From a virus: 31,138 nucleotides of DNA. The translations under genes and the position numbers were made by a program. The stretch lies in the UHGV virus genome UHGV-0171672; one strand, written 5' to 3'. A model generated the notes under the pieces. That model saw only the letters and a program-made list of their open reading frames with translations, ran no database searches and was not told the origin of the DNA. The number at the start of each line of letters is the position of its first letter. The stretch's first letter is position 1. Below are positions 1,256 through 15,332 of this stretch, piece by piece.

Positions 1256-1597
1256 TTAGCCAGCATTGCGACGAGATCGGGGTGATTTTTGGGTGGCTGG
1301 GATTGAATCCTGATCGTCCTCCGACTGAATGGAGCCATCAAGAGAGAGAGCCGGAGCTATCTGACCGGCAGCAGGCATTGTCTTATCTTTTATTAGCCAC
1401 ATCATGTATTTTTCAAACCGATCAACTTGGAGAACCATCTCAACAATTTTGGCTCTGGCGCTTTTTTGCCCTGATTCATAGTTCCTTATGGCAGCTAAAG
1501 ACAACCCCGTAATATCCGCAAATTCCTTTTGCGTTAGCCCTTCAGCCTTGCGTATTTGACGTAGCTTTTTTGCATAGTCTATTGACAAGATAACCAT
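1256..1597 (-). CDS. C: Immunity repressor, P2 C-like HTH protein
   Basis: HTH segment LTQKEFADITGLSLAAIRNYESGQ and the motif GQIAPAL shared with P2 C; divergent from the cox-like gene. ATG at 1597 chosen over the upstream TTG of the ORF track. Confidence 0.8.
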   Translation of the reverse strand: MVILSIDYAKKLRQIRKAEGLTQKEFADITGLSLAAIRNYESGQKSARAKIVEMVLQVDRFEKYMMWLIKDKTMPAAGQIAPALSLDGSIQSEDDQDSIPATQKSPRSRRNAG

Positions 1598-1616
1598 TTG
1601 AGTATTAACCTCTCGC

Positions 1617-1642
1617 AAAAGATACTCGTACGAGTATCTTTT
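1617..1642. promoter_or_regulatory. 26-bp perfect palindrome in the C/cox switch region (candidate operator)
   Basis: AAAAGATACTCGT|ACGAGTATCTTTT read directly from the sequence, lying between the divergent C and cox-like starts. Confidence 0.5.
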
Positions 1643-3922: not shown

Positions 3923-4018
3923 ATGAAGAATGTAAAAGCAATACACACCATCGCCACTGTATGGGTGATATTTCAGGTGAGTGCGCTTATCTGGTTAGCC
4001 CTGAAGATCTGGGAATAA
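3923..4018 (+). CDS. Small hydrophobic peptide (31 aa)
   Basis: MKNVKAIHTIATVWVIFQVSALIWLALKIWE; weak RBS. Confidence 0.2.
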   Translation: MKNVKAIHTIATVWVIFQVSALIWLALKIWE

Positions 4019-4123
4019 CCTGAAGCCGAAAGCAGGCGCGGAATAACACCAGAAAACACACGAGCAATTAATTAAGGCATTCATGCCTTCGGGTTCCCTT
4101 TGTCTTTTTTCAGGAGTCAACAA

Positions 4124-4354
4124 ATGAGAACAGCCGAATCACCCGGCAGAGAAATAACCGCCAGACCAGCTAACCATCATGCGCATATCAGCATGGCCGC
4201 AAGAAAAGCCGAGCGTGCACATATCTGCGAATTACTGCGCGAGCTGACTGAGACAGCGAAAGAGACACACACCTGTCCACAGGAAACCTGCGCAGCCATT
4301 GAACGACTGATTGCAATACTCGCCAACCCAGACGAACTGAAGGGGTGCGCATAA
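4124..4354 (+). CDS. Hypothetical protein
   Basis: ATG at 4124 with AGGAG 6 nt upstream; stop overlaps the exonuclease start (TAATG). Confidence 0.55.
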   Translation: MRTAESPGREITARPANHHAHISMAARKAERAHICELLRELTETAKETHTCPQETCAAIERLIAILANPDELKGCA

Positions 4355-4935
4355 TGAACCATCTCATGATTGACACCGAAACACTGGGTAACGGACCGGA
4401 CGCAGCCATATTCGCGATTGGGGCGGTGTTTTTCGACCCGTTCACCGGAAAGCTGGGCAAGCAGTTTGAGAAATTCATCGACCCGGTGGATTCAGAACGC
4501 AACGGCGGAACCGTCAATGCAGCCACCGCTGTATGGTGGGCCGGACAATCCGTGGAAGCCAGAGCCTGCCTGCGCAACGCAGATGGAACAGAGCTGGCAG
4601 CAGTGACCGAATTTCTGGCGTTCATTTCACGCAATATGCATGACGAAAGCCCGGGCAATTCACTGAACATATGGTGTAAGGGCGCATCCTTCGATTTCCC
4701 GATCCTGAAATCCGCCATAACACGCACAGCCGGAGAAAAAAGCATCCCCTGGTGCTACTGGAACGAGCGCTGTATGCGCCCGCTTATCGCCATGGCTGAA
4801 TCAACTGGATGGAAAATGCCAGGCAGATCAGGCAAAGAGACCATTGCTCACACCGCGCTGGGCGACGCCGTTTACCAGGCAAAGGTCGTGTCAGAAATCT
4901 GGCAGCGCTTCACAACACCATTCCTGAACATATGA
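4354..4935 (+). CDS. DEDDh-type 3'-5' exonuclease (DnaQ-like fold)
   Basis: N-terminal MIDTETLG motif and later H...GDA-like motif typical of DEDD exonucleases. Confidence 0.75.
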   Translation: MNHLMIDTETLGNGPDAAIFAIGAVFFDPFTGKLGKQFEKFIDPVDSERNGGTVNAATAVWWAGQSVEARACLRNADGTELAAVTEFLAFISRNMHDESPGNSLNIWCKGASFDFPILKSAITRTAGEKSIPWCYWNERCMRPLIAMAESTGWKMPGRSGKETIAHTALGDAVYQAKVVSEIWQRFTTPFLNI

Positions 4936-4944
4936 GGTGAAGCC

Positions 4945-5172
4945 ATGGTCGCCATCCTGAATGTGTGTTGCTGCCCCCCCCTGAACGTGGAAAGAAAAGC
5001 CCGCGCATCGCTGCGTTTATTCCGCGACGGCGTGCGGAATTTTTCACGCATAAAACCCCACGACTACCTGGTAATAAGAATCGGTTTTCGCTGGCGATTG
5101 CTGAGCAAAAACAACGGGGCGTCATGGGATTTATTAACGCACGAAACCTATAACAAAGAGGCCGCGTTATGA
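4945..5172 (+). CDS. Small hypothetical ORF containing a C8 homopolymer, coupled to dam
   Basis: Strong SD GAGGTGA before ATG 4945; ATGA overlap with dam start; C8 run at 4974-4981. Protein sequence is not obviously globular. Confidence 0.3.
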   Translation: MVAILNVCCCPPLNVERKARASLRLFRDGVRNFSRIKPHDYLVIRIGFRWRLLSKNNGASWDLLTHETYNKEAAL

Positions 5173-6113
5173 GCAAAGAACTGTTATCCGGCACGCCGCT
5201 TAAATGGGTGGGCGGAAAAAGTCGCATCATGAACACACTGAAGGCGCATCTGCCAGAAGCAGACTGCCTGGTTGAGCCGTTTGTGGGTGGCGCATCGGTA
5301 TTCATGAACACCAGTTACAAGCGTTACATCCTGGGTGATTCCAATGGTGCGCTGATTAATTTCTACCGGCAAGCCAGGGACAACACCGACAGCCTGATCG
5401 ACGAGGCGAAAACCCTGTTCCTGAACCACAACAACAGGGGTGACTATCTCATCATTCGCGAAACCTTTAACGCAGAGAATCATGCCTTCCTGAACAGCAG
5501 AACGGGAATAAGCGACCGCCGTGAACTGCGACTGGCCGCCATGTTTTTGTACCTGAACCGACACAGCTTTAACGGTTTGTTCCGCGTGAACGGAAAAGGC
5601 GATTTTAACGTGCCTTTCGGCTGCTACCGCAAGCCCTACTTCCCTGAGCGGGAAATCCGCGCATTTGCAGACAAGGCAAACAGCACCCGAACGCTGCTTA
5701 TCCACGCAGATTTTAAGGATACGCTGAACTCTGCCAGTCACCTGTTCGGCATGGGCAACACGCTTTGCGTGTACTGCGATCCCCCTTACCTGCGATTCAG
5801 TGGCCGGGACAATTTCACCGCCTACGGAAAACCATTCGATGAAGACGAGCACGTTCGTCTGAGGGCAGCGCTTGACCGCCTTTCACAGGAAACGGGCGGC
5901 ATGACCAGCATCACCATATCCAATTCCGACACACCGGAAACCAGACGCATTTATCAGGGTTACCGGATGAACGCCATCCAGGCACCACGAAGCGTTGGCG
6001 CAAGAACCCGGGAATCAGCACCGGAGGTTATCGCCACCCTGAGATGCATCACATCCGCCTTATCAACGGTTCGCACTTCTGCGCCACGAACATGGAAGAA
6101 GTACGCGTGCTGA
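5169..6113 (+). CDS. dam: DNA adenine methyltransferase (Dam-like N6-adenine MTase)
   Basis: KWVGGK AdoMet-binding motif near the N-terminus and catalytic DPPY motif. Confidence 0.9.
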   Translation: MSKELLSGTPLKWVGGKSRIMNTLKAHLPEADCLVEPFVGGASVFMNTSYKRYILGDSNGALINFYRQARDNTDSLIDEAKTLFLNHNNRGDYLIIRETFNAENHAFLNSRTGISDRRELRLAAMFLYLNRHSFNGLFRVNGKGDFNVPFGCYRKPYFPEREIRAFADKANSTRTLLIHADFKDTLNSASHLFGMGNTLCVYCDPPYLRFSGRDNFTAYGKPFDEDEHVRLRAALDRLSQETGGMTSITISNSDTPETRRIYQGYRMNAIQAPRSVGARTRESAPEVIATLRCITSALSTVRTSAPRTWKKYAC

Positions 6114-6141
6114 CAGCAACACGCAATACGGGAGGTAAAGC

Positions 6142-6492
6142 ATGGCAGTGATTTATATCGCCGGTCCCATGACCGGATGCAAAGACCACAACAGGACGGC
6201 ATTTTGCGTGGAGGACCTGAAACTTCGGTGCGCCGGAAACATCGTTCTTAATCCTGCCGTACTGCCTGACGGATTAAGCCAGCAGCAGTACATGAGTATT
6301 TGTATTCCGATGCCCATGTGTGCCGATGCCATTTACTTACTGGATGGATGGGAAGAGTCCGCTGGCGCACGGGCTGAGTACGCAATGGCGCTCAAACTGA
6401 ACATGCCAGTGTCATTCCCGGAAAACCGGGCAGCCGGCGAAACCGTCGCGCAGCTGCTTCACAAATCAAAAGCCGCACAGGCGACTGAGTAA
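6142..6492 (+). CDS. DUF4406-like protein (nucleoside 2-deoxyribosyltransferase-like fold)
   Basis: VIYIAGPMTG ... IVLNPAVLPDGLSQQQYM ... YLLDGWEESAGARAEY pattern matches DUF4406 as I remember it; SD GGAGGT. Confidence 0.7.
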   Translation: MAVIYIAGPMTGCKDHNRTAFCVEDLKLRCAGNIVLNPAVLPDGLSQQQYMSICIPMPMCADAIYLLDGWEESAGARAEYAMALKLNMPVSFPENRAAGETVAQLLHKSKAAQATE

Positions 6493-6930
6493 CCGACCGG
6501 AGATCGAAACATGATTGCGCGCAGAGCTACCAACCGTCTCACAGGCTTTATTCCAGGCAAGGTTGATCATGCACTCCATCACGGGGCTGTCACTTTCCTC
6601 AACAAAGGAGAGGCGCGCAATCATGCATTCCGGGGTGAGCACGTGGCGCTGGCTAATCAGTCTTTGATAGCTAAGCGCCTGCCATTCAGCCTTTTCAGCT
6701 CTGATAGAAAGAGAGGCAGCCATGACCTGCCACACCAGAAAGAGCACCACACTGGCGAAAACAAACGTTGCGCTGTCGCAAAAAATGAATGCGGCAACAA
6801 TCGCAAGGAAAGCGCTAATCCTCAGAACCAAGGAAGCGCGACGGTGGAGAAGGCTTGTCATGTGTTCAAGCCAGTAGCTGTACCACAGGTCAAAAAGAAT
6901 TTCGTAATCAGAAGGGAGCTTATCACTCAT
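6466..6930 (-). CDS. Hypothetical membrane protein, antisense orientation
   Basis: ATG at 6930 (MSDKLPSDYEILF...), two hydrophobic helices; the only plausible coding content in 6.5-7.3 kb. Confidence 0.35.
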   Translation of the reverse strand: MSDKLPSDYEILFDLWYSYWLEHMTSLLHRRASLVLRISAFLAIVAAFIFCDSATFVFASVVLFLVWQVMAASLSIRAEKAEWQALSYQRLISQRHVLTPECMIARLSFVEESDSPVMECMINLAWNKACETVGSSARNHVSISGRLLSRLCGF

Positions 6931-7188
6931 CAGAAACACCCCGCGTATGCAGACAATCACCAGTTGCCAGGTGATATTAATTCGCAACATTCTAACCACA
7001 TCAGCACGCAACACAAAAACCGCTTGCCAGCGCTCGTCGTGTCGGGTTACATTTCCGCTGCACCTCATAAAACGGGTGCCGGGATTTCCACCCCGCTGAC
7101 AAACGAAGCGCACAGCCGCGCCAGCGGTTTTTTTGTGCGTACTGTATCGCCACGTCTTTTTCGCGTCAGAATTATGGCGGGGCGTACA

Positions 7189-7222
7189 GGGCCGACTTCG
7201 GTCGGGCCGGTTTCTTCGTTTG
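7189..7222 (+). terminator. Stem-loop with UUCG-type loop followed by T-rich tract
   Basis: GGGCCGAC-TTCG-GTCGGGCC then GGTTTCTTCGTTT. Confidence 0.3.
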
Positions 7223-7313
7223 CCGGTTGTGGAAACCCTGTACGTCTCGCCACCCTGAGTTTTCCACCTCTGGTTGGTGAGTTTTCAAAATTCACAAACG
7301 AAGAGGCCACACC

Positions 7314-7535
7314 ATGGCAAACCGCAAGCAACAGCGCGCCCGCGCTGAGCGTCTTCACATCCGCAGCGAAATCAACCGCAGACTTTTCCGCGCAACACGC
7401 GTCGCGCAAATCATGCATATCAACATGCTGCATGAGCGCACGCACGCACTATCAAACCGTTACTGCGCTGCTGTCTTCAGCTATCTCGCCGAAGATCTGG
7501 CAGAACTGCAAAGCCTCATCAACCAGCACCGATAA
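7314..7535 (+). CDS. Hypothetical basic protein
   Basis: 73 aa, SD AAGAGG; preceded by a 19-bp near-palindrome at 7277-7295. Confidence 0.55.
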   Translation: MANRKQQRARAERLHIRSEINRRLFRATRVAQIMHINMLHERTHALSNRYCAAVFSYLAEDLAELQSLINQHR

Positions 7536-7603
7536 ACCACATCCGGAAGCTATCCCACACCTGCACGCGGGAGGCTTCCGCACGTCTGTTACCGGAGGTT
7601 CTC

Positions 7604-8020
7604 ATGAAGAGCGTTAAGGGACTTTCAGATATTCAGGACTTCTTTAACTGGATGTGGGCGGTGGATCCCCTGCTGGCTTCCCGCCTGAACAACTGGCACG
7701 ACTATTACCGCCGCGCCTGTAAACAGGCTGCCCGCAGCGTCACCACATACGGGGATTTCTCCTTCACCGTGGACGGTCGTTACCGCGTGGACGTGAAAGG
7801 TGACGGTGATGGCTTTGGTTTATTTCACATCAACGGCACCGACAGTACCGCCATCAGCTGGTCATCGTCAGAGATGGCACTGGTTCTGGAAATGACAACC
7901 CACAGCGTGGCCGTGAAAGGCATATACACCGCAGAAGACTTTATCGGTGAATACCAGCGCCTTCTCGTGCTGTACCGCGCGGCGTTTCAGGAGGTCACTG
8001 GCGGGGAGTACGACGCATGA
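7604..8020 (+). CDS. Hypothetical protein upstream of A
   Basis: 138 aa, SD GGAGG; ATGA overlap with A. Confidence 0.6.
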   Translation: MKSVKGLSDIQDFFNWMWAVDPLLASRLNNWHDYYRRACKQAARSVTTYGDFSFTVDGRYRVDVKGDGDGFGLFHINGTDSTAISWSSSEMALVLEMTTHSVAVKGIYTAEDFIGEYQRLLVLYRAAFQEVTGGEYDA

Positions 8021-10530
8021 GTGACCGCAATGCACAGCTGGCGTACCCGTGGAACGCACCGCTACCGGTTATCGATCCTGAAACGTTCGGCAGAGCACAA
8101 CCAACCGCATTACGCCAGGCCATTCAGAGCTACATCAACGAGGACATTCGCATTGATGCCAGACTGGATGAAGAAACCGTCTCCTTCCTGACAAACACAG
8201 ACGAAGGCAAGCGAATTAATTCGCATCTTCACCACGACGAAGAGCGTCGGGTCAGACTGGAAAAACTGGCGAAGCACAAACGCGAGAATCCGCCCACGGT
8301 GGTATCGGAAGCCATGGCAGAACTTCGCGCCCTGCCCTCGTTTCTTGGCAACGTGCTCATTCGTGATCTGGCGCGTTTAAACCGCAAACAACAAAGCGCC
8401 CGCAATGAAGGCGTGAAAAACAACAACACTCACGTGGCCGATAACTTCGTTCGCCGTGGACTGCGCACACGCCTGAAACGCATCGAACAGGTGAATGAAT
8501 GCTTCGCCACGACGGCATTCAAAGCCACCGCAGCGCGTCATCGCCTTGATGAATTACTCATGCTGCCACAACTCAACCGTGATCAAATTCAGCGCCTTGC
8601 CACACTAACGGCGGCGGCATTTTCCACCGAACTGGAACGCATATGTGATGAAGTTACTGAGCGGACAGGAAAAGGCGACGATAACCTGTTTACCTGGTTG
8701 CTGACTTACCAGCAGCTGGCGCGCATGGCAATAAAACTGGGCGTGAACCCACCATACTGGCCGTCACTCGAGATCAGACGTGACCGCCGCACGGCACCAG
8801 ACCCTGAACTGGTACCGGGTGCGGTAATGCGTATCACCTGCGCCACCTGGTGGAACAACCAGCTGCGCCACCTCGCTGATCTCTGGCGGGAGGAATTACT
8901 GCGTGCCGCCGGAAGAGTATCGCGCAAGGCATCCCCCTACATCAGCCATGAGTCACTCCAGGAATTCCGGGAGAAACGCCAGCGCACCCGTGATTTTCTC
9001 AAAAGCTGGGACATTGAAAACGAAGACGGTGAACGCTTGAGTCTGGAGGACGTGTACTGGTCAGGGCTGGGGAATCCGCGCAACCGCCGCAACGAGATGA
9101 TGGCCTGCGTCAGAGGGATGGAACAGGTCGCCGAATCGCGTGGTGACTCCGCGTTCTTCGTGACAGTAACCTGCCCTTCCCGCTTTCACAGCGTGAACGA
9201 GGACGGCAGCCTGAACCCGAAATACAACGGTGCCACCGTGCGCGATGCCAGTGATTATCTGGTTTACGACGTCTTTGCAGCTGCAAGAAAAAAACTCAAC
9301 AAAGAAGGCCTGAGCTGGTACGGGGTGCGCACCGTTGAGCCACACCATGACGGCACACCGCACTGGCACATGCTGGTATTCACCGCCCCGGACAATGAAG
9401 AACGCATCATTGAAATCATGCGTGACGCAGCAATCAAATCAGATCGCGCAGAACTGGGGAATGATATTTCTCCGCGCTTCAAGTGCGAAAAAATCGACCC
9501 GGCAAAAGGCACACCGGCAAGCTACATCGCAACCTATATTGGCAAGAACCTGGACGCCAGCACCTTTCACGACAATGACCCGAAAACCGGCAAACCTTAC
9601 GCCGATAAAGAATCGGGAAAAACCATGGCGGAAACCGTGGAAAACGCCATTGCCTGGGCGAGTCTCCACCGCATCCGGCAGTTCCAGTTCTTCGGTATCC
9701 CGCCCCGACAGGTATGGCGTGAACTCCGCCGCCTTGCCGGACAAATGGAGCGTAACCCCGCATCACCGAAGCGCCTGGACCATGACGACATTGACGCCAT
9801 TCTGGCCGCCGCTGACGTGGGGTGTTTTGCCACCTACATCAACCGTCAGGGCGGCGTGCTCATTCCACGCAACCTGTACCTGATCCGCACCGCATACGAA
9901 ACCGCAGATGAGGCCAACGACTACGGCGAATTCCCGCAGCGCATCTACGGAATTTGTGCCCCGTCGCTCGGCGAGCGCTACACCATCTGTACCCATCCGG
10001 ACGAATGGAAACTGGTCAGAAAAGAAGCGAAATCCGACAACAGCACGGACGAGGGTTTTGACGTTGGGGGCGGCTTCGCCGCACCTTGGACTCGTGGCAA
10101 TAACTGTCCCCATGATGAAAAAACAGACACCGGAGAGGGTAAAAACCCACCACCGGAAACCAGGAAAGAACAAAAACTGGTCGTCCCGGGAGGTGATTTG
10201 GGTGAGTGGTTAAGGTCACTGACCCCCACAAAGCGAAAACAACTCACCAGGCAGCTGAAAGATGCGCCATCTGACACAAAAACCGTGAAAACCGGCGGCC
10301 CCACCACGCCCGATGACGTCATACATGTGCGTACAGCATTGCCGCTGACTGACGTCACCACCACCGTAATCAAGTCGGCACTGAGCGCGACGGGCGAGGA
10401 GCTACACAGTGGCGCAGCACTTTCCGTACACAGAGGTGCACGCGTTCGCCTGCCTGACGGGCGGATTGTGCACTGGGATGAGAAATCACGAAGCCTGGTG
10501 GCAGCAGATCAACCGGAGGTGAACCCATGA
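8017..10530 (+). CDS. A: Rolling-circle replication initiation endonuclease (P2 gpA-like)
   Basis: HUH motif TPHWHMLVF and paired tyrosines YIATYIGK; 837 aa. Confidence 0.9.
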   Translation: MSDRNAQLAYPWNAPLPVIDPETFGRAQPTALRQAIQSYINEDIRIDARLDEETVSFLTNTDEGKRINSHLHHDEERRVRLEKLAKHKRENPPTVVSEAMAELRALPSFLGNVLIRDLARLNRKQQSARNEGVKNNNTHVADNFVRRGLRTRLKRIEQVNECFATTAFKATAARHRLDELLMLPQLNRDQIQRLATLTAAAFSTELERICDEVTERTGKGDDNLFTWLLTYQQLARMAIKLGVNPPYWPSLEIRRDRRTAPDPELVPGAVMRITCATWWNNQLRHLADLWREELLRAAGRVSRKASPYISHESLQEFREKRQRTRDFLKSWDIENEDGERLSLEDVYWSGLGNPRNRRNEMMACVRGMEQVAESRGDSAFFVTVTCPSRFHSVNEDGSLNPKYNGATVRDASDYLVYDVFAAARKKLNKEGLSWYGVRTVEPHHDGTPHWHMLVFTAPDNEERIIEIMRDAAIKSDRAELGNDISPRFKCEKIDPAKGTPASYIATYIGKNLDASTFHDNDPKTGKPYADKESGKTMAETVENAIAWASLHRIRQFQFFGIPPRQVWRELRRLAGQMERNPASPKRLDHDDIDAILAAADVGCFATYINRQGGVLIPRNLYLIRTAYETADEANDYGEFPQRIYGICAPSLGERYTICTHPDEWKLVRKEAKSDNSTDEGFDVGGGFAAPWTRGNNCPHDEKTDTGEGKNPPPETRKEQKLVVPGGDLGEWLRSLTPTKRKQLTRQLKDAPSDTKTVKTGGPTTPDDVIHVRTALPLTDVTTTVIKSALSATGEELHSGAALSVHRGARVRLPDGRIVHWDEKSRSLVAADQPEVNP

Positions 10531-12824: not shown

Positions 12825-13616
12825 TCACCCTATTTTTCTATGCATTTTCATGAGTTCCCTTATTAAGCTAGCATGAAAGATTGATACATCAGAAATCCTT
12901 GTATCAATAGATGAATCAATATTATCAGAAACCTTTTGCTCAAATAAATCGCAGATACCATCAAGTGACTCAATATCTTTTTCCAACTTAGAAAAACCCT
13001 TAAATAGATATAATGAATCCCTTAACTCCCCAAGCTTTGAAAATAGTTGGCTATCTAGTAATGATATAAATTCATCAGAGGGAAGCCCCATCGCATCCTT
13101 AAAATCTTCCGTAACTTCAAAAGCTAATCCATTAATTTTAGGGAGAATAACTTCTCGTAACCAATACCCTTCGTTTATAGCTTCATTTCTTCCTTTATAA
13201 TGCTGCCACAAAGGAACCCCTACAGATGCAATTAGCGCAATAATTGAAATTGCTATAGAGTACCATTCAGGTCCTGATTCAGGAACTCTAACGATATTAT
13301 AGAGATTCCCCGATGAGGTTGAGGGGTAATATCCATTCAGAACATAATTATCAGGTTTATCATAAAGAAGGTGCGGTGTAAACTTCCTTTCATAACTATT
13401 GCATAATTTTAGATCGCTATTTTTTCCAATGCATATATCAGCATTAAAAATGTTTCCACTCTTTGGTTCTATTACGTGAGACTCTGAATTTTGCGAATCC
13501 ATGTTAGACGCGGTTCTTTCTAGATATGTCGCAGAGCAAGCGGATATATTAACAAAAAAAATGACAGGCAATGCTGTCATTTTAAAAACAGAACACAAAT
13601 CAGAAGAACGGAACAT
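12825..13616 (-). CDS. Lipoprotein-like membrane protein with internal TM helix (cargo island)
   Basis: N-terminus MFRSSDLCSVFKMTALPVIFFVNISAC has a lipobox-like ISAC; internal helix WYSIAISIIALIASVGVPLW; 17-nt overlap with the upstream gene. Confidence 0.6.
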   Translation of the reverse strand: MFRSSDLCSVFKMTALPVIFFVNISACSATYLERTASNMDSQNSESHVIEPKSGNIFNADICIGKNSDLKLCNSYERKFTPHLLYDKPDNYVLNGYYPSTSSGNLYNIVRVPESGPEWYSIAISIIALIASVGVPLWQHYKGRNEAINEGYWLREVILPKINGLAFEVTEDFKDAMGLPSDEFISLLDSQLFSKLGELRDSLYLFKGFSKLEKDIESLDGICDLFEQKVSDNIDSSIDTRISDVSIFHASLIRELMKMHRKIG

Positions 13617-13955: not shown

Positions 13956-15332
13956 TCAGGTTCTTTGAGTTGCATTTTCCGGTAAAGGAAAACGTATATT
14001 AATCATAACTCCCGGAAAACGGGCTTTCTGCATACACTTAAGATAGGTACGATCTGGTTCAGATTCAAGCCCTGTATTATTAAATGGATAAGTGAATTTG
14101 TCACTTTGGTTATCTAACGTTTGCTTTTTCAACTTATAAGAACCATCAAAGTTTATATGTGTGCATCCAGAAATTAAAGACATTCTGATGTTTCCACTTA
14201 GTTCTTTGGATAGTTCTTTTAAACTATCATGCATATCCTGGAAAAACTTCAATAGCTCAATGGTTCCCGTACCAGAACTATCTGTCTCCGTTTCATTTTT
14301 ACAACTAACCCGCCCCTGCAAAGCAGCGACTGTAATCAAACCTTCTCTAAACATCCCTTTTTTATTTATGTGTTTTTCCACATAAGGGATTATGTGATTG
14401 TTATATGAATAATGTTCTAAAGAAAGTCCTGAAAAAGTTTCATCAATAGTTTTTCCAAAGTTAAAAACAGCTATTTCACATGTTGGCTGTTTTAAGCCAT
14501 TATTTACAAACCCCCTCAAATACCAACGCGGACGCTGCTCAAGCCCACAATGTCTCTCTGCATTATCAAGTAATTCGCCCATGCAAGATGTTAGATGGTT
14601 TTCTGCCTTGCTAACTAATTTTAATTGATGATCACTTAGACACTCGTTTATATAATTAGTGAATTTCTCAGACATTCTATTTTTGGTATCTTGTGCAAAT
14701 GCAGACGCATTTTCCTTGCCGATACTATCAGCAGAGAATATTCTTTTCTTAGGGTTATCTTTTTTCGATTTTTCTGTTTCATCATGCACCTTCCCTGGCG
14801 TCACTTTATTTATTTCTTTAACCAACCCGATGTCACGAATAATTTCTAAATATTTTTCATCCTTCGGATAAATGCCATTAAGTTGTACTTGAGCATCTTT
14901 TAAATTTATATTGTGACGTTTGGCTGAGCTCAGTGCAACACCAAGGAGACATTCCGCACCTAAACAATGCTTTTTATTTTTAGTATAATCAAGCAAATAT
15001 GATTTACGTTTACCCCTGGCAATCAATCTAGTTACACCATGAATAAACAAAAGAGATTTTTCTGGATGATCAAACAAATCGAAATATTTAGGTATTATTA
15101 TTCTATCTTCTTTGCGACGAAGAGTTGCAGTATCATATTTCTTTACGGATGAAATACTTTCAATAAAAGTAGCCACCTGACTTTTCACTGGTGTTACTTC
15201 GTCAGAAAAATGTAACCTTTCATAGGCTTTATATTTAATTCTTCTTTTATTTTTTCTCTCAACGCCTTTTAAAAAGCGAATCCAACCACGTAAAAAGCGT
15301 TTTCTTGCATCCTTTTTATCTATTTTTTTCAC
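13956..15332 (-). CDS. GHKL-type (histidine-kinase-like) ATPase with basic N-terminal domain
   Basis: N-box ELLDNAERH (encoded around 14551-14577) and Gly-rich DSSGTGTIELL; GTG start at 15332 after AAGGTGA; K/R-rich ~240-aa N-terminal region. Confidence 0.7.
   Translation of the reverse strand: MKKIDKKDARKRFLRGWIRFLKGVERKNKRRIKYKAYERLHFSDEVTPVKSQVATFIESISSVKKYDTATLRRKEDRIIIPKYFDLFDHPEKSLLFIHGVTRLIARGKRKSYLLDYTKNKKHCLGAECLLGVALSSAKRHNINLKDAQVQLNGIYPKDEKYLEIIRDIGLVKEINKVTPGKVHDETEKSKKDNPKKRIFSADSIGKENASAFAQDTKNRMSEKFTNYINECLSDHQLKLVSKAENHLTSCMGELLDNAERHCGLEQRPRWYLRGFVNNGLKQPTCEIAVFNFGKTIDETFSGLSLEHYSYNNHIIPYVEKHINKKGMFREGLITVAALQGRVSCKNETETDSSGTGTIELLKFFQDMHDSLKELSKELSGNIRMSLISGCTHINFDGSYKLKKQTLDNQSDKFTYPFNNTGLESEPDRTYLKCMQKARFPGVMINIRFPLPENATQRT

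Follow-up and report, generated by a model that had tools for sequence, protein, structure and literature searches.

What lies between the DUF4406 gene and the next rightward gene in the early region of UHGV-0171672? This viral sequence of 31,138 nucleotides (nt), analysed at full length and called the window below, is by its gene content a complete P2-like prophage of Escherichia coli. The DUF4406 gene ends at 6492 and the next rightward gene starts at 7314. A preliminary description of the DNA had seen no convincing plus-strand coding before 7314, and had proposed that the interval holds either a small regulatory RNA or a promoter/terminator pair. Our analysis indicates that the gap is probably an RNA immunity cassette of the P1-c4/P4-CI type in the early region of a complete P2-like prophage. 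The RNA pair of this cassette most likely keeps an antirepressor-like gene and the replication gene silent.

No credible plus-strand gene was found between 6492 and 7314, in line with the preliminary description. The 368-residue plus-strand open reading frame (ORF) at 6511-7617 was rejected as a gene; it has no Pfam match and it overlaps a conserved minus-strand gene, two Rfam RNAs and, in another frame, gene 7314. The conserved minus-strand gene (6466-6930) leaves 383 bp (6931-7313) before gene 7314. The whole window was scanned with Rfam at the gathering threshold and rescanned with relaxed filters. Exactly two matches were obtained, isrK and C4, both in this gap and both on the plus strand, with E-values (below) that go well beyond chance.

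The first match is an isrK RNA, similar to seqA of P4, at 7060-7134 (RF01394, 64.1 bits against a gathering score of 50, model positions 1-77 of 77, E = 1e-11). It is full length, scores above the gathering score and ends in a Rho-independent terminator, as expected of the family. The predicted RNA of 75 nt is built from two 5' hairpins, a single-stranded linker and the terminator. Both the Rfam match and a terminator scan placed the terminator at 7114-7134 on the plus strand, with a stem at 7114-7129 followed by a U run. The isrK match is located directly upstream of C4 with a spacing of 35 nt, and it contains sites complementary to C4. Nine of the 15 other loci scanned also have isrK upstream of C4.

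A consensus scan found a promoter-like site at 7024-7053 on the plus strand, with the -35 hexamer TTGCCA, an 18-nt spacer and the -10 hexamer TACATT. It is the only plus-strand promoter-like site in 6300-7800, and the isrK match begins about 7 nt after it. Transcription of isrK is predicted to start at about 7060. Both hexamers are invariant in nine related modules, in which the spacer varies in sequence and is constant in length. By analogy, the site is the positional counterpart of P_LE of P4. Because the homology between lineages begins at about 7001-7008, we take the module to span from about 7001 to the gene at 7314. Inspection by eye also suggests a weak promoter on the minus strand (TTGTGT-16-TAGAAT, 7016-6989), back-to-back with that of isrK; it was not called by the promoter scan.

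The second match is a C4, or P4 CI-type, antisense RNA at 7170-7257 (RF01695, 82.1 bits against a gathering score of 45, model positions 1-87 of 87, E = 6.6e-15). It folds into a closing stem of 17 bp (7175-7191 with 7236-7252), a hairpin 1 with a UUCG loop (CCGAC-UUCG-GUCGG, 7192-7205) and a hairpin 2 (7206-7227) with the loop UUUCUUCGUUUG, all on the plus strand. To follow this fold in homologs, 80 viral contigs were gathered with a loose C4 pattern, and 65 C4 RNAs were found with a covariance model for which the window, P88 and P4 served as input. Over 50 distinct homologs, paired cells make up 99.3%. The preliminary description had proposed a covariance search for a conserved RNA structure. 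Compensatory changes were seen in 17 of the 27 C4 pairs, with the stem of hairpin 2 being invariant partly owing to how the loci were gathered. None of 500 shuffles was as good as the C4 fold, and no slid register came close.

These two RNAs alter the picture given by the preliminary description in part. Its choice between a regulatory RNA and a promoter/terminator pair was well aimed, as the gap has two Rfam RNA genes together with a promoter-like site (7024-7053) and a terminator (7114-7134). The anatomy was mis-assigned, and isrK had gone unseen together with its terminator and promoter. The UUCG hairpin with a T-rich tail that it had described at 7189-7222 is real as a hairpin (7192-7205), but what looked like its tail belongs to hairpin 2 of C4, as the 5' arm and the loop. 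Likewise, a terminator scan lists 7198-7210 as terminator-like, yet this sequence is inside the C4 fold and we rejected it as a terminator. The public records at the module are blank in RefSeq or contain a spurious antisense ORF. This ORF, a 62-residue minus-strand "hypothetical protein" of RefSeq and GenBank, lies exactly over the isrK terminator and C4 (about 7065-7253 in the window, 8666-8854 in locus L001 and 5033-5221 in P88, our locus L002). It is probably an annotation artefact repeated in many genomes. Other Rfam RNAs were also observed near C4 loci, namely a TwoAYGGAY RNA at 2832-2951 of locus L059 and an int-alpA RNA at 7978-8039 of the P4-like locus L056.

How would such an RNA pair act on its neighbours? 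C4 exposes two short sequences, b' (UCUUCGUUUG, 7213-7222) in the specificity loop of hairpin 2 and a' (GUGGAAA, 7229-7235) in the single-stranded joining region. Each has a complement on both sides of C4, again on the plus strand. Upstream, a1 (UUUCCAC, 7085-7091) is in the loop of isrK hairpin 2 and is complementary to a', and b1 (CAAACGAAG, 7100-7108) is in the isrK linker and is complementary to b'. Downstream, a2 (UUUCCAC, 7261-7267) is complementary to a' in 7/7 nt, and b2 (7295-7306, with CAAACGAAGA at 7295-7304) is complementary to b' in 10/10 nt. The b2 site overlaps the Shine-Dalgarno sequence GAAGAGG (7300-7306) of gene 7314 and ends 9 nt short of the ATG. When 7060-7340 is folded to minimum free energy, loop 2 is paired with b2 and with the Shine-Dalgarno sequence. 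This is the classical a1b1-c4(a'b')-a2b2 scheme of P1 and P7, and the seqA-CI-seqC scheme of P4.

We examined whether the sites co-vary in a set of 57 C4 loci, which have 45 distinct b' types and 28 distinct a' types, and used the a' and b' sequences of other loci as controls. A b2 complement of at least 8 nt was found in 31/45 cases with the locus's own b' and in 15/1980 with those of other loci, at positions +28 to +38 after C4. For b1, complements of at least 8 nt occur in 21/45 own and 25/1980 foreign combinations. Complements of at least 7 nt were found for a2 in 26/28 own versus 23/756 foreign combinations, always 0-10 nt after C4, and for a1 in 27/28 versus 18/756. The a and b complements sit at fixed positions across loci. 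In an alignment of nine P88-type modules, nearly all variation falls within the six a/b patches, which change in concert. Two isrK-C4-(epsilon-like) cassettes are present in tandem, about 830 bp apart, in sister prophages of the window's lineage (C4 at 2905-2992 and 3734-3821 of L125, with the same coordinates in L127) and in some viral contigs; two C4 matches each were also observed in L028, L029 and L066. The a/b specificities of the tandem cassettes differ, and each fits its own targets.

The 19-bp near-palindrome that the preliminary description had pointed out upstream of gene 7314 (GTGAGTTTTCAAAATTCAC, 7277-7295, plus strand) is indeed present, and it lies between a2 and b2. All nine positions pair (9/9) when G-U is allowed, around a one-base centre, which is effectively a stem of 8 bp with a 3-nt loop. 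The stem is kept in relatives by one-sided changes and by G-U/G-C and U-A/U-G changes. In 34 of 38 distinct loci, the interval from a2 to b2 has a hairpin whose dG is -3 kcal/mol or lower (mean z against shuffles, -1.3). The most plausible role of the element is that of an RNA spacer hairpin bringing a2 close to b2, and not that of an operator, although a protein operator at this place is still conceivable.

The first gene under the predicted C4 control (7314-7535, plus strand) encodes a 73-residue protein similar to the epsilon protein of P4, and RefSeq names it "derepression protein". Its product matches Pfam PF25738 (Derepression) with 28.2 bits against a gathering score of 27. It is 32% identical to P4 epsilon over 50 residues by BLASTP (E = 8e-8), and hhalign gave a probability of 92.9%. 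The P4 record labels epsilon "helper derepression protein". P4 epsilon acts on the C repressor of P2. By analogy, a P2 C-type repressor, presumably that of the prophage itself, is the most likely target for inactivation by the epsilon-like protein. At other C4 loci, the first ORF after b2 is mostly of antirepressor type (Rha, Bro-N, AntA, P22_AR_N, KilAC or ORF6N); it is a kil/eta ORF in P4-like elements and an epsilon-like protein in P88-type phages. These identities fit the control of a derepressing function. At L019 (C4 at 1876-1963), the gene directly under predicted C4 control (2013-2270) is Tad2-like (anti-Thoeris) and not an antirepressor.

Two further genes follow in the same direction. 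The gene orf138 (7604-8020, plus strand, phrog_3237) is located between the epsilon-like gene and gpA, and the gpA-type replication endonuclease gene is at 8017-10530 on the plus strand (Pfam Phage_GPA, E = 1.9e-108). The order isrK, C4, epsilon-like gene, orf138 and replication gene is that of the left operon of P4, here inside a helper-type phage. The P4 genome gave isrK and C4 matches over seqA and the CI RNA, respectively, with order and orientation unchanged, and epsilon, orf151 and alpha come next. As in the window, a' and b' of the P4 C4 RNA are complementary to upstream and downstream sites, the downstream b site ends in the Shine-Dalgarno sequence of the next ORF, and an epsilon gene and then a replication gene lie downstream. 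Phage P88 has the same isrK match in the same place, with its isrK-C4 pair upstream of epsilon-like and replication genes. The segment at about 7000-7528 is common to P88 and other Xuanwuvirus phages with 83-86% identity, at the same position before the replication gene.

The cassette also differs from that of P4. It is in a complete P2-like phage; a satellite was excluded by the structural genes and gpA. The isrK-C4 spacer is 35 nt here and about 107 nt in P4, and the first ORF after C4 is the epsilon-like gene here and kil/eta in P4. The replication protein is the HUH endonuclease gpA rather than the alpha primase-helicase. The orf138 product showed no similarity to P4 orf151, and the a/b specificity is different. 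By analogy, the cassette would work like that of P4, but the element is a P2-like phage.

The c4 RNA of P1 and P7 belongs to the same family, RF01695. Citron and Schuster, in work of 1990 and 1992, reportedly described an immI operon of c4, icd and ant1/2 with a1 b1, a' b' and a2 b2 sites. The likeness to the window extends to the two-site antisense scheme with an upstream decoy copy, to a b2 that overlaps the ribosome-binding site of the first small ORF, and to an antirepressor function as output. Specificity evolves by concerted a/b changes, as between the hetero-immune P1 and P7. The differences concern the genes and their place. The controlled protein is epsilon-like in the window and the next gene is phrog_3237; no Ant, KilAC or Bro domain was found in the window, in which similarity to Icd was not searched. 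The cassette is inside the early/replication operon of a P2-type phage, whereas P1 has a separate immI operon. The upstream element is an isrK RNA with its own terminator and not only a short c4-a1b1 motif. The P1/P7 scheme is summarised in PMC8546580. The c4-a1b1 motif of Rfam (RF03163, family name "a1, b1 targets of C4 antisense RNA") is an upstream a1/b1 target copy of C4 (Weinberg 2010, PMC2864571). It overlaps the isrK matches in one locus (L017). At the gathering threshold, the upstream element of the window scored as isrK and not as c4-a1b1.

Experimental evidence for a related locus comes from the Salmonella prophage Gifsy-1, which has the order IsrK, STnc1160, orf45 and anrP (PMC4825925). 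There, IsrK has its own promoter and terminator, the terminator is leaky, and the antirepressor gene downstream is expressed from the isrK promoter. The read-through RNA, which contains a C4-like RNA and the antirepressor gene, is translationally silent; short IsrK supplied in trans activates at least 100-fold, and the locus controls prophage induction (PMC4825925). Compensatory mutants showed that G28/G31 of IsrK pair with C162/C159 of the downstream C4-like segment. The same authors regard IsrK as a structural homolog of P4 seqA, and STnc1160 as resembling CI (PMC4825925). Barquist et al. likewise equated IsrK-C4 with seqA-CI (PMC3632133). Gifsy-1 differs in being lambdoid, in coupling the translation of AnrP to that of orf45, and in its final output, the antiterminator AntQ. 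In the window, b2 is directly on the Shine-Dalgarno sequence of the epsilon-like gene, which is followed by replication genes.

From these comparisons, we propose the following model. In a lysogen, the promoter at 7024-7053 would be active and would produce the 75-nt IsrK/seqA-like RNA, mostly ending at the terminator at 7114-7134. Read-through transcripts would carry C4 (7170-7257), which, as judged from the known systems, is likely to be processed from the longer transcript and cut out as a stable, tRNA-like small RNA. The b' loop and the a' joining region of C4 would then pair with b2 and a2 on transcripts of this same kind. As the Shine-Dalgarno sequence of the epsilon-like gene (ATG at 7314) is covered by b2, translation of that gene would be blocked by the pairing. 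The untranslated C-rich mRNA would probably be ended by Rho, and orf138 and gpA would be silenced too. The epsilon-like gene is C-rich and G-poor on the coding strand (GC skew of -0.2 to -0.29 over 7300-7600), a rut-like composition that fits Rho-dependent polarity as long as translation does not occur. The a1/b1 copy on IsrK would compete for the same C4 surfaces, in cis or in trans, and may make IsrK either a decoy or a co-target. Because of this competition, the balance of IsrK to C4 would set the cassette off (lysogeny and immunity) or on. In the on state, the epsilon-like protein would most likely inactivate a P2 C-type repressor and gpA would start replication.

Several points weigh against this model. 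The promoter, C4 processing and Rho polarity are predictions, and the Pfam match of the gene 7314 product to epsilon is marginal. Transcription that starts at the upstream early promoter would have to cross the convergent minus-strand gene and the isrK terminator to reach gpA. In RNAduplex calculations, C4 gave z scores against shuffles of -1.8 with the downstream leader and -1.2 with isrK, which are not clearly better than shuffles; RNAduplex ignores intramolecular structure, and duplex energies were not used as evidence. For this reason, our case rests on co-variation and not on energy. The role of a1/b1 is also ambiguous, as it is needed for P4 immunity (PMC3632133) and acts as an activator in Gifsy-1 (PMC4825925).

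A strictly P4-style mode of action is a rival, which we regard as possible but a good deal less probable than the model above. The main job of the cassette would then be superinfection immunity and replication control. C4 would act on the nascent a1b1 (seqA) and a2b2 (seqC) to terminate transcription before gpA, IsrK/a1b1 would be a termination-promoting co-target, and the epsilon-like gene would be a passenger. The elements are arranged as in the P4 left operon, ahead of a replication gene, and an isrK-like element is required in P4-like prophages. An incoming genome whose a/b type is the same could be targeted in trans by the C4 RNA of a resident prophage, and two cassettes of different specificity in sister prophages are expected of immunity determinants. 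However, the location of b2 on the Shine-Dalgarno sequence of the epsilon-like gene, and at most other loci on that of an antirepressor gene, points to translational control of the first gene, and short IsrK activates rather than represses in Gifsy-1. The two readings overlap.

The module is not peculiar to this prophage. Near-identical copies of the prophage were found in 25 complete genomes. Of 5426 complete E. coli genomes, 1228 have the 306-bp module (7008-7313), O157:H7 and UTI89 among them, with 1420 E. coli copies in all. The copies usually are 80-90% identical, with the differences in the a/b patches, and have the same gene context. Both RNAs belong to curated families and the pairing of isrK with C4 is in the literature. 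The locus is an ordinary member of a known system, and no new kind of system is revealed. Our literature search found no paper that describes the cassette in P88-type or P2-like phages. The result corrects the annotation: the gap of about 320 bp before the "derepression protein" gene, in about one fifth of complete E. coli genomes, is a complete C4/IsrK cassette. It also provides a testable model of how P88-type and related P2-like prophages may keep the epsilon-like antirepressor and the replication gene silent, and it marks the six a/b patches as the candidate determinants of immunity specificity.

P2-like phages are classically thought to rely only on the C/Cox protein switch. We offer as speculation, and with more doubt than assurance, that P88-type and related P2-like phages carry a second, RNA-gated switch. 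In it, a hyper-variable IsrK/C4 "address code" of at least 45 b' and 28 a' types, sometimes in tandem, would stand over an epsilon-type antirepressor and gpA, and would be common with P4-like satellite immunity. If this is true, RNA specificity could allow a helper and its satellite to silence each other or to lift each other's repression. In our small sample, such cross-talk between the phages and P4-like satellites found no support.

A related idea is that C4 of a resident prophage mainly acts in trans in warfare between elements, on P4-like satellites or P88-like competitors that share its a/b specificity, by blocking their replication or derepression genes. Such a role was speculated on for IsrK-C4 of lambdoid prophages (PMC3632133). 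It would agree with the diversity of the a/b repertoire (45 b' and 28 a' types among 57 loci), with how common the module is in E. coli (1228/5426 genomes) and with the place of the cassette in a helper-type phage beside a homolog of the satellite's epsilon. We nevertheless consider it unlikely as the main function. No b' type is common to P4-like and P88-like loci in the sample. Each cassette has a perfect self-target, for which self-regulation suffices as explanation. A scan of viral contigs for the a2-N-b2 pattern of the window gave, among the matches listed, only single chance-like matches in unrelated environmental contigs.

The minus-strand ORF at 6466-6930, for which the preliminary description had predicted two transmembrane (TM) helices, is a real gene. 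Its 154-residue product matches phrog_6315 over the full length (E = 1.6e-65), has homologs and shows two hydrophobic helices. An exhaustive search gave 19 representatives, among them full-length homologs of 152-161 residues with 25-39% identity, in which the start Met is aligned and several motifs are in common. The AlphaFold2 model (predicted local distance difference test (pLDDT) score of 88) is a long helical hairpin with three short helices. A Foldseek search of the PDB gave no fold match (best E = 0.37, a generic helical hairpin), and no Pfam, NCBIfam or PADLOC family was found apart from a sub-threshold DUF6239. Between the window and L125, the gene has 19 synonymous and 24 non-synonymous codon changes, which is weak evidence. 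In L124 (4001-4525, GCA_900450425), a copy with local frameshifts is accompanied by a fragmented gpA, and this prophage is either degraded or affected by indel errors of the assembly.

Could this 2-TM gene and the RNA cassette form one unit, for example with the membrane protein as a toxin or exclusion protein whose expression is linked to the region of the divergent isrK promoter? The gene is transcribed against the early operon, and in every context examined it is alone on the strand opposite to its neighbours. In a P88-like lineage (L130-L132, 4001-4468), a homolog with 39% identity takes this position and is divergent from isrK-C4, and the remnant L133 keeps the 2-TM gene (4001-4468) with a truncated C4 (3673-3758, 27 bits). 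That remnant adjoins a type I restriction hsdR gene and insertion sequence (IS) elements. On the other hand, most isrK-C4 modules have other upstream neighbours, namely SPFH or other genes in P88, UTI89 and O157, and other members of the family occur elsewhere in prophages that lack C4 (L134-L136). Similarity between the two lineages starts only at about 7001, and the junction looks like a mosaic boundary. The 2-TM gene also has no complementarity to a' or b', and our analysis gave no sign of joint function with the RNA module. A single unit thus seems very improbable to us. Because most isrK-C4 modules have other neighbours, we treat the 2-TM gene as separate cargo and not as part of the RNA switch; it is perhaps expressed in lysogeny.

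A plain internal terminator and promoter that divide the early operon, with hairpins that lack any trans-acting RNA function, would account for the terminator and the promoter-like site, but it is hardly credible in view of two covariance-model matches well above their gathering scores, compensatory changes in the C4 stems, and four target sites that co-vary with the C4 loops, all of which is unexpected for a plain pair.

The remainder of the window agrees with a P2-like prophage. Its early part contains an integrase gene, a helix-turn-helix repressor gene (1256-1618, minus strand) and a Cox-like gene (1702-2226), the latter two forming a pair as in P2. The early operon (4345-6492 in the window, 5470-8093 in L001) has genes for a 3'-5' exonuclease (Rv2179c-like), an apparently orphan ParE-like toxin and a Dam methylase, together with the DUF4406 gene. 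The structural genes encoded in the window include those for portal, terminase, GPO scaffold, P2-family capsid and baseplate J. Two minus-strand ORFs of 263 and 458 residues (12825-13616 and 13956-15332) separate the replication region from the portal gene, at the place of the tin/old cargo hotspot of P2. They have no Pfam or PADLOC match and may represent uncharacterised defence cargo.

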